64,000 bases of DNA, taken from NCBI GenBank assembly GCA_963711735.1, contig CAVQFA010000005.1:135525-199524 (forward strand), given 5' to 3'. A model generated the notes under the pieces. That model did no database searches. It had not been told where the DNA came from and worked only from the letters and a program-made list of their open reading frames with translations. How positions within the stretch are numbered: the stretch's first letter is position 1; each line of letters opens with the position of its first letter. Origin of the DNA: Candidatus Gottesmanbacteria bacterium (lineage in GTDB: Bacteria > Patescibacteriota > Microgenomatia > UBA10105 > UBA927). The position numbers and the translations under genes were made by a program. Shown here piece after piece: positions 25,010-28,000 of the stretch.

Positions 25010-28000
25010 ATGCCTGCCGGCGAAAAATATTTAACCATAGGACAATCAGCAGAATACCTCGGTGTATCACTTGATACTCTTCGGCGTTGGGAAGCCTCAG
25101 GTAAAATTTCAGCCATCCGACCGGACGGAAAAAACAGAATGTTCTCTGTTTCGGATTTAGACAGAATTAAAAACGCGGATACTTTATCCGTTGCAGACAC
25201 GGCAAAATGTTTAGGAGTTTCTCCGTCAACACTTCGTCGTATAGCCGATAGTAATATACTTCCATCCGTCCGGCAGGACAATGGGTATCGTATTTTCAAA
25301 GCCGTTGATGTCGATGTATTTCTTTTATCCGATGCATGGAAGAATTGGAAAACCCAGGGAGATAAAAATGAAACATTAAATTCAGAGAGTAATGAACAAA
25401 AATCAGAGAATCCGGAATTCACACATACGAACGAAATTCAGAGTGTACAAAATGAGAATGCAGATAGTGAGGATGAAAAGTATAACGCCGCTGTCATACC
25501 ATTTGTCGTTCCTACCACCACGGCATTTTCTGGGGTTCCGATGCCTCCTGAATATCTATCAAACAATATCAATCCATCAAATACTGATACAAAGAACAAC
25601 GGAAAAAAATGGACAGCACTCATTCTTTTATTATTACTTCTTCTCCTTGGAGCAGGTGGAATATTCGTACAGACCTCATTTTTCGGATCAGATATCGCAC
25701 GCGGAATATTCCCGCGGGCTAAAGATAACGGGGATGCTGTTGTCGGGAATAATTCGTCCGGCACCACGCAAAAGACAGATCAGATAGGCAGCGTGCTCGG
25801 AGCATCAGGTCCAACCGGTACAACGGGAGCAACCGGGGAGTCCGGCCCGACAGGTGCGACGGGTGATAAAGGATCAACGGGACCGACCGGTTCATCCGGA
25901 GATAAGGGAACGACCGGTTCGCAGGGAGGATCCGGGGATAAAGGTGTGACGGGATCGCAAGGTACATCGGGAGATAAAGGTGCAACCGGACCACTTGGTG
26001 CAACAGGGACAAGCGGAGCGACAGGAGAGACGGGTCCATCGGGTCCAATGGGTGCAACAGGCGCAACGGGTGATGCTGGAAGTATAGGAGAAACGGGACT
26101 TCCCGGCGCAACAGGTGCAACCGGAAATAATGGGCCAACCGGTGCAACAGGAGAAGCCGGCCCGACCGGTCCGACAGGAGTAACAGGTGCAACCGGACCA
26201 ACTGGTGATAACGGACCGACAGGAACTACCGGAGAAGCTGGTCCGACGGGAGAGAGCGGTTCAACAGGATCTACAGGTTCTACAGGCGCAACAGGTGAAA
26301 CCGGTCCGACCGGATCAACCGGTGAATTCGGACCAACCGGTTCTACCGGAGGAACAGGCGCAACAGGTGAGACAGGACCAACAGGATCAACAGGAGAAAT
26401 AGGACCGACAGGAGGAACCGGATCAACAGGGGGAGCAGGAGAGACGGGTCCGACCGGTGCAACCGGAGAAATTGGTCCAACCGGTTCCACAGGATCAACC
26501 GGTGCAACGGGTGATGTTGGTCCGACAGGATCATCAGGTGATACCGGTCCGACCGGTGCCACCGGATCAACAGGAGCAACCGGAGAGACCGGAACTTCAG
26601 GCCCAACAGGTTCAACAGGTGATTCAGGACCTACAGGTTCAACCGGAGGAACAGGGGGAACCGGAGAACTCGGACCAACCGGTGCTTCCGGAGAGTTAGG
26701 ACCGACAGGATCAACCGGAGGGACAGGATCTACCGGTGAGATCGGACCAACCGGTGCATCCGGAGATTTAGGACCTACCGGTGCAACAGGGGCAACAGGG
26801 GGAACCGGTGCGACCGGTGTACAAGGTGAAACAGGGCAGACCGGTCCGACGGGGTTTTCCGGAGCAACCGGAGCAACCGGTGCAACGGGAGAGACAGGAG
26901 CTTCAGGTCCGACAGGATCAACAGGTGAGTCCGGACCTACAGGTTCAACAGGATCAACCGGTTCCACCGGAGCCACCGGGGAGTCCGGTCCGACAGGTTC
27001 AACAGGTGCAACCGGAGCCACGGGCGAAAGCGGTCCAACGGGTTCAACAGGAGGAACAGGAGAGACAGGTGCCTTTGGTCCGACAGGCGCAACCGGCTCT
27101 ACAGGATCAACGGGAGAAGCAGGTCCTACGGGATCCACCGGTTCTACCGGAGCCACGGGCGAAAGCGGTCCAACCGGTTCCACCGGGGTAACCGGAGCTA
27201 CAGGGGAATCCGGTCCCACCGGAGCAACGGGTGCAACAGGAGAATTAGGACCCACAGGATCAACAGGATCAACAGGAGCTACAGGAGAATCAGGACCAAC
27301 CGGATCAACAGGATCAACGGGGGCTACAGGGCAGTCCGGTCCCACAGGATCAACAGGTGCAACAGGAGCAACCGGAGATGCAGGACCAACGGGATCGACC
27401 GGTTCCACCGGTGAAACAGGTGCCTCCGGTCCGACAGGTGCCTCCGGTTCTACAGGGGGAACAGGGCAGTCAGGTCCAACCGGTGCAACAGGAGGAACCG
27501 GAGAATCAGGTCCAACCGGAGCAACAGGTGCGACAGGTCCAACCGGACAGTCAGGTCCCACAGGATCAACAGGTGCAACAGGAGGAGAAGGAACGTTGGG
27601 TCCAACAGGAGCAACCGGAGGAACGGGTACCATTGGAGGAGGAGGTATGGGTCCAACAGGAGGAACCGGATCAACAGGCTCAACCGGAGCAACAGGGTTG
27701 TCAGGTCCCACAGGTTCAACCGGCGCAACGGGAGAGAGTGGTCCAACAGGTTCAACCGGAGGAACAGGCTCAACCGGAGCAACCGGAGATTCAGGTCCTA
27801 CCGGTTCCACAGGGGGAACCGGAGAACCAGGTCCCACAGGATCAACCGGATCAACAGGAGCTACTGGTCTTTCCGGTCCTACCGGAGCTACAGGTTCCAC
27901 AGGTGCAACCGGTGATTCAGGACCAACAGGCTCAACAGGTTCAACCGGCGCAACAGGAGAGTCCGGTCCTACCGGAGCAACCGGTGGAACAGGAGAATCC

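Follow-up and report, generated by a model that had tools for sequence, protein, structure and literature searches.

The window analysed here, a 64,000-nucleotide (nt) stretch of a Candidatus Gottesmanbacteria genome whose coordinates are counted from its first letter, contains a gene of about 13 kb that runs in one uninterrupted frame from 25010 to 38164 on the forward strand and encodes a protein of 4384 amino acids (aa). It is a genuine single gene, and its product belongs to a large unnamed family of the Patescibacteria that is defined by an N-terminal module, in which two winged helix-turn-helix (wHTH) domains are followed by a single transmembrane (TM) helix and a variable ectodomain. 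The parts are known ones, namely wHTH domains of the MerR/Xis type, a single-pass anchor, bacterial collagen and an H-type lectin, laid out in a ToxR-like topology. What is new is a fixed tandem pair of BldC/Xis-like domains as the cytoplasmic foot of surface fibres and adhesins across the Patescibacteria, and also the juxtamembrane motifs and associated DNA element that this family has for its own. Judged from sequence, the module would be a membrane-tethered, sequence-specific DNA-binding unit that is probably autoregulatory, a reading to which we give a probability of roughly 0.6. The features of the gene are as follows, all on the forward strand.

25010..38164, forward: whole gene, type II (N-in) membrane protein of 4384 aa, stop codon included (listing of open reading frames)
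25025..25177, forward: wHTH domain 1, 'h1' type, aa 6-56 (Pfam, NCBIfam, AlphaFold2, fold searches)
25181..25330, forward: wHTH domain 2, 'h2' type, aa 58-107 (Pfam, AlphaFold2, family profiles)
25331..25384, forward: helix after the second domain, aa 108-125 (AlphaFold2 helix 108-125; helix 108-121 in the model of aa 1-125)
25385..25603, forward: disordered cytoplasmic linker, aa 126-198 (predicted local distance difference test, pLDDT, ~55 in AlphaFold2)
25604..25669, forward: single TM helix, aa ~199-220 (hydropathy; AlphaFold2 helix 199-215)
25670..25804, forward: short extracytoplasmic juxtamembrane segment, aa 221-265 (family alignment)
25799..34210, forward: collagen-like Gly-X-Y array, aa 264-3067, Y mostly Thr (repeat scan)
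34211..38161, forward: C-terminal non-collagen region, 1317 aa (homology search)
37703..37897, forward: H-type lectin domain, aa ~4232-4296 (Pfam PF09458)

The tandem wHTH pair

A preliminary description of this DNA had proposed two HTH_17-type domains at the N-terminus, and profile searches with aa 1-250 bear this out. HTH_17 (PF12728; E=2.5e-19, 69.7 bits against a cut-off of 27), MerR (PF00376; E=5e-16, 58.7 bits against 28.2) and the NCBIfam 'excise' model TIGR01764 (E=5.3e-16, 58.7 bits against 28.8) all score above their cut-offs, each in two stretches. The Pfam model MerR_1 is matched as well, and the NCBIfam models for BldC, HspR and RacA show weak similarity to the N-terminus. Trans_reg_C, the winged helix of the OmpR/PhoB type, found no match in the Pfam and NCBIfam scans of the N-terminus, the domains being of the MerR/Xis type. 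The peptides quoted in the preliminary description match the translation of the 25010 frame exactly. An AlphaFold2 model of the N-terminal part, built with a 60-sequence alignment, contains two confidently predicted winged-helix domains with the order beta-alpha-alpha-beta-beta-alpha (from strand 7-9 to helix 47-56 and from strand 58-60 to helix 98-106), with block-mean pLDDT of ~82-97 over aa 1-110 and 88-97 over aa 11-110. When aa 1-125 are modelled alone the two domains are again confident and the mutual orientation of h1 and h2 is not fixed (predicted template modelling score, pTM, 0.51), a looseness that would fit proteins that become ordered on DNA.

The residues with which BldC grips its operator recur in both domains. 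In the structures of BldC with DNA, T27, T29, W31 and K33 touch phosphates, the bases of the major groove are read by R30 and K26, and the wing residues H46, R47 and R48 lie in the minor groove (PMC5859096). HMMER alignment places T23, R26, W27 and R43 of h1 on T27, R30, W31 and R47 of BldC (contacts from PMC5859096), and T74, R77 and R94 of h2 on equivalent contact positions, R77 and R94 falling on R30 and R47; all of these are invariant or nearly so across the family. The pair is basic, with a family median net charge of +5 and isoelectric point (pI) of 9.8, and values of +2 and 8.9 in the window protein. Both domains have the characters of a minimal wHTH of the BldC/Xis type, that is, a length of some 50-60 aa, an Arg/Trp in the recognition helix and an Arg in the wing. 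Neither Pfam, NCBIfam nor AlphaFold2 shows a MerR-type coiled coil or effector domain, only the short helix at aa 108-125 following the second domain.

Membrane anchor and fibre

Between the second domain and the TM helix the protein is acidic (aa 108-201, net charge -7), and a hydropathy scan finds aa 202-220 (Kyte-Doolittle 2.73) to be the sole TM-grade hydrophobic segment of the whole protein, in keeping with the acidic linker and single TM helix described earlier. AlphaFold2 predicts a helix at aa 199-215 with a block-mean pLDDT of 88. The 15 residues on either side of the TM helix carry a mean charge of +1.95 before it versus +0.56 after it across the family, and +2 versus 0 in the window protein. 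This positive-inside bias gives an N-in/C-out orientation, as the proposal of a cytoplasmic HTH and an extracellular fibre had it. Because of this bias and of the collagen/lectin nature of the ectodomain, the HTH pair can be placed, by prediction, in the cytoplasm at the foot of the fibre.

The 8.4 kb of collagen that had been noted after the TM helix lies at nt 25799-34210. It spans 2804 aa, of which 2796 are in Gly-X-Y runs with four two-residue breaks, shows no frame switches, and has the long repeats of a collagen triple helix of the PF01391 type. If triple-helical, as a presumed trimer, the fibre would be about 800 nm (~0.8 micrometre) long. The size of the extracellular part, earlier given as 4300 aa, has to be corrected to ~4164 aa, its nature as a collagen-lectin fibre being upheld. 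The lectin domain matches H_lectin (PF09458) with E=3.3e-07 and 30.8 bits against a cut-off of 24. Peptidase_S74 (PF13884) is not matched in aa 3131-4384 at E<=0.01, though close relatives have one. A search with the C-terminal 1254 aa gave 398 homologues (best E=5.9e-49) among 'tail-fibre-like' surface proteins of Patescibacteria and DPANN, and none of the 120 listed homologues of these 398 has the HTH N-terminus, from which it follows that the fibre tip is a module independent of the HTH one.

Just outside the membrane (window 25679-25804; relatives P0125-P0270) the family conserves FLLxPxxTAKFFGY, followed by VLGA ~30 aa after the TM helix, and many members add L.PFS..AL.iV...P..Y....I.DvNDiF after the VLGA. 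The window protein retains FFGS (aa 224-227) and VLGA (aa 262-265), the latter marking the exact start of its collagen, and passes straight into the array; the longer conserved juxtamembrane domain of many relatives is missing. VLG is present in the 90 aa that follow the TM helix in 55 of 121 members, against 5.8% of random windows. No Pfam family covers these motifs, for which a processing site and a docking segment are both possibilities.

A widespread family

The stop-to-stop frame of the giant gene begins at 24992 and the ATG at 25010 is the earliest start codon within it, so that the N-terminus of the 4384-aa protein is well defined. A word-indexed homology search with aa 1-250 returned no matches, and an exact look-up of the full 4384-aa sequence found no database record. 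The exhaustive HMMER search, which covered 1.84 billion cluster representatives, recovered 1358 proteins matching the N-terminal module at E<=1e-3, 291 at E<=1e-10 and four at E<=1e-30. In the top 150 representatives the match lies at the extreme N-terminus, and in 121 of them the HTH pair precedes one TM helix and an ectodomain that can be as long as 4931 aa (more than 1000 aa in 42 members), with 13-156 aa (median 62) linking the pair to the TM helix; the remainder are mostly short fragments. Profiles made separately for the two domains found the h1-h2 order in 135 of the 150. A scan of one genome per GTDB species gave at least 600 stretches, 590 of them confirmed, and the 33 best loci, in which at least ~95 of the 120 residues of the tandem module are matched, were analysed. 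The HTH pair is in frame with the following sequence in all 33, a TM helix is visible in 31, and many of the open reading frames (ORFs) extend beyond the 10-kb flank. Against a profile of 30 family members the window ORF scores E=2e-44.

Since the fusion recurs in this way and the family motifs extend beyond the membrane, the gene cannot be the product of a frameshift or a lost stop codon, nor can its first part be a separate small gene. The preliminary description had itself named two ways in which it could fail, the lack of a significant HTH_17 or MerR-superfamily match in residues 1-110 and a true start codon downstream of the HTH segments, for example with 25010..25600 as a small gene cut off by a hidden frameshift. 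Neither holds: the HTH matches are strong, and the fusion of HTH, TM helix and ectodomain is conserved across independent assemblies, with all 33 GTDB loci in a single frame.

Named records of the family come from Microgenomates (Levyi-, Davies-, Woese-, Chisholm- and Pacebacteria), Saccharibacteria and the 'Patescibacteria group'. The ectodomains include SH3_3, often in small members, Collagen and Peptidase_S74, and close relatives combine both HTH domains, Collagen and Peptidase_S74 in one gene (P0125, which is MEK7571436.1, P0131 and P0134, all three matching PF13884; Collagen PF01391 is matched in P0125 and P0164). Architectures joining HTH_17 to collagen or Peptidase_S74, for which the preliminary description had suggested a search, therefore exist in the databases. 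Its statement that no described precedent is known for HTH_17 fused to a collagen-like adhesin stands as far as the literature goes, a full-text search having found no published description of an HTH pair, TM helix and ectodomain in one protein; it does not stand for the databases, which already hold hundreds of homologues. Pfam and NCBIfam have no model that covers the N-terminal module beyond the generic HTH. Neighbouring genes in the fetched loci depend on the lineage: one clade has an ATP synthase operon, a second has PIN/HTH_17, and the clade closest to the window protein carries a LytR_C gene downstream. No universal partner or protease was found among them.

Several variants and peculiarities were seen along the way. 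One protein (P0121) carries eight HTH domains, four times h1-h2, ahead of its TM helix, and other Patescibacteria giants of more than 3300 aa (L035, L039, L051, L043) have a single h1-like HTH with a TM helix at aa ~115-155. The three closest relatives of the window gene (L080-L082, with two HTH domains, collagen and Peptidase_S74) are directly followed by a gene for a LytR_C protein of ~240 aa (L080 12553-13278, L081 11889-12638, L082 11217-11933), a neighbour that the window lacks. Several third-party annotation (TPA) records titled 'uncultured Gammaproteobacteria bacterium' (L001, L012, L014, L016, L018, L020, L021, L023, L025 and others) carry a gene and synteny of the Patescibacteria type, one of them being a complete 915-kb chromosome (OZ246414.1); their organism labels are probably wrong.

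An upstream DNA element

Genes of the family share a DNA motif in front of their start codons, first spotted in the 90 nt upstream of the 33 loci. Within 300 nt upstream of these genes the 8-mer CCTAKGYA is enriched ~70-fold. Exact matches to the half-site CCTA[TG]G[CT]A, its complement included, number 57 in 9.6 kb upstream of family starts, or 5.9/kb, compared with 0.27/kb in other non-coding and 0.05/kb in coding DNA of the same loci; in 1000 shuffled versions of the upstream regions the count averaged 0.85 and never exceeded 6. At least one half-site lies upstream in 25 of 32 loci. The family 14-mer is CCTATGCAAAGGTT, its extended form also given as CCTAKGCAAAGGTT, of the type CCTAKGCA(AAGGTT). 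In its commonest arrangement the half-site forms a 28-bp palindrome, CCTAKGCA-N12-TGCATAGG (consensus CCTATGCAAAGGTTAACCAATGCATAGG, exemplified by L030). In 13 loci this palindrome stops 6-9 nt short of the ATG, and in several others it lies within ~60 nt of it, often with a TTGACA 45-60 nt further upstream.

Other arrangements occur as well. Direct-repeat arrays are found in L033 and L028, at spacings of 10-21 nt, and in the clade nearest the window (L080-L082), where GAGGCTAAA-TGCCTAGGTA-N11-TGCNTAGGT lies upstream of the -35 hexamer; Saccharibacteria have everted half-site pairs. The arms of the palindrome show no RNA covariation (71.7% of cells paired versus 73.1% in column shuffles), and at the variable positions about half of the sequences lack pairing. 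With arms that do not covary and half-sites arranged so variously, the element behaves like a protein-binding DNA site rather than an RNA helix.

The same 14-mer stands in the promoters of genes that fuse an h1-like HTH to a C5 cytosine methyltransferase (L074, L075, L049, L077). In the HTH-methyltransferase promoter the palindrome AATAACCATTGCCTAGGCAAAGGTTATT lies just 5' of TATAAT, and for this reason the 14-mer is probably not transcribed at these loci. Since two unrelated protein contexts have in common only the HTH class and the motif in their own promoters, this HTH class is the most economical candidate for the binder, and autoregulation would be the most economical function. At L074 9220-11242, where the neighbour was checked, a gene for a restriction endonuclease of the Eco47II type precedes the HTH-C5-methyltransferase gene, and the two look like an autoregulated restriction-modification system that uses the same motif.

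In the window the element takes a divergent form, of which the following parts can be listed.

24806..24828, forward: distal operator-like half-site, left arm of a 21-nt inverted repeat, CATATGTATGCAAAGGCTTTCTT (repeat and motif scan)
24942..24947, forward: TTGACA, possible -35 hexamer (read from the sequence; weak evidence)
24995..25008, reverse: proximal operator-like site TCTATGCAAAGGTT, ending one base before the ATG (motif scan)

The proximal site differs from the family 14-mer at one position, and a copy with three mismatches lies at 24810-24823, 185 nt upstream. The two form the cores of a 21-nt inverted repeat (24808-24828 / 24990-25010) that is 90% complementary. The compact palindrome seems to have been split in the window by an insert of 161 nt, for which BLASTN of the leader against all fetched loci found no homologue. 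Among the matches to the 14-mer in the window only the one-mismatch copy and its position appear notable. A TTGACA stands at a similar distance upstream in many family loci. In the window no convincing -10 hexamer lies 16-18 nt from it, and a sigma-70 promoter scan near 25010, in which this hexamer was not called, gave no more sites than shuffles.

Several observations weigh against the element, or the module, having the regulatory role that we favour. The arms of the window repeat are 161 nt apart rather than in a compact palindrome, no exact 8-mer is present near the window gene, and the number of 14-mer matches at up to three mismatches in the whole window is no higher than chance. The leader, 24800-25040, folds as RNA to -67.8 kcal/mol (z=-6.7 against shuffles) with the AUG paired, by means of a long-range helix between the same two arms of the repeat. 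A few copies of the motif are found at a distance from family genes, among them those near tRNA genes in L004. The unfixed h1-h2 orientation (pTM 0.51) leaves the geometry of binding unset, ectodomains built as structural fibres are ill suited to classical sensing, and the motif could belong to a different conserved regulator.

The fold of the leader speaks for another account of the element, as an RNA hairpin that would mask the start codon or the ribosome-binding region and have nothing to do with the HTH domains. The constrained distance of 6-9 nt between palindrome and ATG, and a right arm that ends in AGG(T), like a Shine-Dalgarno sequence, agree with it. Set against these are the lack of covariation and the unpaired variable positions already described, the direct repeats, the everted pairs and the half-sites upstream of the -35 hexamer, the position of the 14-mer 5' of TATAAT at the methyltransferase loci, and the fact that no Rfam family matches in the window. 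We regard this account as rather doubtful for the element; the grading concerns the cis element only, and the account is compatible with, not exclusive of, each of the readings of the protein. For the window gene itself, an operator and an RNA-level role are not separated by these data.

Some further points concern the element and the start codons around it. The 28-bp palindromes in L004 (8393-9069) lie 35 nt upstream of tRNA-Arg(cct) and ~110 nt beyond tRNA-Pro(cgg); as these copies adjoin tRNA genes, the element is not exclusive to family genes, and it may mark a small regulon. In Daviesbacteria the palindrome was considered as the operator of a neighbouring PIN/HTH_17 toxin-antitoxin pair, and this was rejected because it stays by the family ATG in loci without such a pair. 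No Shine-Dalgarno motif precedes any of 12 window genes examined. Among them, the starts at 19876, 20496, 21946, 24337, 25010, 38408, 40270, 54598, 56223, 57371 and 58459 have no GGAGG-like sequence within ~15 nt, and translation in this organism is probably initiated without reliance on Shine-Dalgarno pairing.

Comparison with known systems

The individual domains are closest in kind to BldC of Streptomyces and the Xis/RDF (recombination directionality factor) proteins (PDB 6AMA/6AMK, 4J2N, 8DGL), with which they share the minimal wHTH. Those proteins are small and soluble and multimerise only on DNA, whereas here h1 and h2 form a covalent, fixed pair that is tethered to the membrane; the family motif CCTAKGCA(AAGGTT) is likewise unrelated to the AATTNNNNC of BldC. 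Minimal wHTH proteins of this type bind direct repeats cooperatively, head to tail, and bend the DNA; direct-repeat arrays of the half-site are present in the family, with palindromes as the more frequent arrangement. Two excisionase-like HTH units in one chain are found in TraN of plasmid pIP501 (PDB 4P0Y/4P0Z/4PM3), which binds double-stranded DNA and was recovered by both fold searches with the HTH region of the window protein.

The layout of the whole protein, with a cytoplasmic DNA-binding domain, a single TM helix and an extracytoplasmic C-terminus (a topology that here follows from the positive-inside rule), is that of ToxR, CadC, TcpP and VtrA, in which an N-terminal cytoplasmic wHTH, a linker and one TM helix precede a C-terminal domain outside. 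DNA would be bound at the membrane, as is described for CadC (PMC6320335) and, with transertion, for VtrA (PMC9977878). The ToxR-type proteins have a single wHTH of the OmpR type and compact periplasmic sensors, whereas the present family has a tandem MerR/Xis-type pair, and outside the membrane its members carry a structural fibre, SH3 domain or adhesin that reaches up to ~5000 aa. The Patescibacteria are not known to have an outer membrane.

RacA of Bacillus subtilis, which ties DNA to the envelope through a MerR-like wHTH, has a DNA-binding domain that is a close relative of the window HTHs in structure and sequence. RacA reaches the membrane by way of DivIVA, and Noc by an amphipathic helix; unlike the members of the window family, neither is an integral membrane protein or has an extracellular domain. 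On the fibre side, Scl1/2, BclA and the 'tail-fibre-like' proteins of Patescibacteria and DPANN resemble the window protein in combining Gly-X-Thr collagen with a globular distal region. Scl proteins are anchored by a C-terminal LPXTG and BclA by an N-terminal exosporium-targeting region, and both anchors differ from the HTH-bearing N-terminal TM anchor described here.

Proposed function and alternatives

The mechanism that we propose proceeds in steps of falling confidence. The HTH pair would sit in the cytoplasm and bind DNA; its preferred sites would be elements of the CCTAKGCA(AAGGTT) type, in arrays or palindromes between the promoter and the start codon of family genes; and the membrane-anchored product would then contact its own promoter and leader, most likely as negative feedback on a very costly 13-kb gene, with the locus also held at the membrane as by regulators of the ToxR/CadC/VtrA type. 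Last and speculatively, because collagen trimerises, the assembled trimer would bring six HTH domains together, and avidity for DNA may depend on fibre assembly. Of the functions suggested in the preliminary description, a membrane-tethered one-component regulator gains support from the contact residues shared with BldC and from the operator-like motif upstream, with a nucleoid tether persisting as its rival; no supporting evidence was found for the sensing of fibre engagement or tension.

Patescibacteria form a large share of bacterial diversity, live attached to hosts and have few recognisable regulators, and the HTH-pair module bears on the question of how their very large surface proteins are controlled and anchored. 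It is widespread, putting a predicted sequence-specific DNA-binding pair on the cytoplasmic side, beneath fibres, SH3 wall-binding domains and adhesins, and it comes with a candidate operator, which a 125-aa domain and a 28-bp oligonucleotide make directly testable. Were binding to prove true, the system would supply the first cis-regulatory code for Patescibacteria of which we are aware, a new class of membrane-integrated regulator of the MerR/Xis rather than the OmpR type, and a handle on how costly giant genes are restrained or positioned at the membrane. The annotation of family members, now named 'helix-turn-helix domain-containing protein' or 'fibronectin-binding autotransporter adhesin' in the databases, is improved as well.

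Among the other readings of the protein, that of a structural tether survives best. The HTH pair would attach to chromosomal sites, specific or AT-rich ones, and so link nucleoid, membrane and fibre after the fashion of RacA or Noc, without regulatory output; it could serve the mechanical anchorage of the 0.8-micrometre fibre, spatial organisation or the transertion of the giant gene. RacA's DNA-binding domain is among the closest solved relatives, the N-terminal module is joined to many unrelated ectodomains as an anchoring or sorting module might be, the HTH pair is highly conserved while the ectodomains vary, and the up to eight HTH copies in one protein would raise avidity rather than specificity. 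A pure tether has no need, however, of a motif placed between promoter and ATG of its own gene and again in the HTH-methyltransferase promoter, which is a signature of autoregulation, and we consider the tether possible but on balance unlikely.

A bolder extension of the autoregulatory reading would make the family a direct physical and signalling link from long surface fibres and adhesins to the chromosome in these ultra-small episymbionts. Assembly, engagement or shedding of the fibre would alter the clustering or release of the HTH domains, and with it the occupancy of CCTAKGCA sites and the expression of surface proteins, in a one-polypeptide outside-in pathway that resembles Notch or integrins in its logic and may also hold the nucleoid at the attachment pole. 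We offer this as a distinctly tentative idea, with the odds well against it.

Release of the HTH pair by proteolysis, as a transcription factor in the style of Notch, SREBP or RsgI, appears quite unlikely. The FFGY...VLGA segment would be a site of site-1 cleavage or autoproteolysis, after which a site-2 protease would free the pair. The enrichment of VLG ~30 aa after the TM helix, its coincidence with the start of collagen in the window protein and a helix-weakening GAGG within the TM helix speak for such a scheme, for which RsgI, with its juxtamembrane autoproteolysis, offers a bacterial precedent (PMC10328401). The segment nevertheless contains no protease domain or known cleavage motif and belongs to no Pfam family, no site-2 protease gene was seen in the window, and, as the protein has neither a C-terminal wall anchor nor a second TM helix, cleavage would free the fibre from the cell.

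That the HTH pair does not bind DNA in vivo, and acts instead as a protein-interaction or targeting module, or as an extended signal-anchor that paces the export of very large proteins, we hold to be very improbable. In RodZ a cytoplasmic HTH fused to one TM helix binds MreB, a precedent for a protein-binding role, and the module is indeed attached to many large secreted domains; yet the DNA-contact residues are invariant, the pI of the pair is basic, and the gene-specific upstream motif is shared with the HTH-methyltransferase fusions. Finally, the notion of an artefact, in which an assembly error or lost stop joined a small HTH gene to a collagen gene whose protein starts at Met178, draws on the uneven local quality of assembly or sequence (at least 21 frame switches in the collagen-coding sequence of the window's first 10.9 kb) and on the ordinary signal-anchor N-terminus that Met178 would yield, but it is rejected on comparative data and has next to no credibility, the 13-kb frame being unbroken, the same fusion occurring in 33 of 33 independent genome loci and 121 of 150 database representatives, and the family-specific juxtamembrane motifs running on across the junction.

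Genomic surroundings

The giant gene is not the only collagen gene of the window. Downstream on the same strand, 38381/38408-40273 encodes a protein with a single HTH_17 (E=1.3e-08) followed by ~10 TM segments, the last two of which are separated by a loop of ~230 aa. This gene overlaps by 4 nt with a second giant collagen gene (40270-50082, forward; 3270 aa), whose product has an N-terminal TM anchor at aa 57-75 and no HTH. The region thus links membrane-bound HTH_17 proteins to collagen fibres in two places, by fusion in one and by adjacency in the other. Towards the other end of the window, a small open frame on the reverse strand (60116-60448, 111 codons stop to stop) contains a single h1-like HTH, FFNVNQAAFILKVHPLTIRRYIREQKLTAVKVGGAVRI, that matches the family profile with E=2e-4.

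The collagen sequence at 1-10900 (forward) differs from that of the giant genes, as its Gly-X-Y coding switches at least 21 times among the three forward frames; the arrays at 25800-34200 and 41300-47500 keep to one frame throughout. The stretch is either a collagen pseudogene in decay or a repeat that was poorly assembled at this place. The intact ORF at 11119-18435 (2438 aa) has its start inside collagen. Upstream of the giant gene lies a divergent cluster (18485-24337, reverse) with a pilin-like N_methyl protein (19873-20496), a CarboxypepD_reg protein (20480-21946) and a TPR and PMT_2 glycosyltransferase (22520-24337), and this region looks like a cell-surface island.

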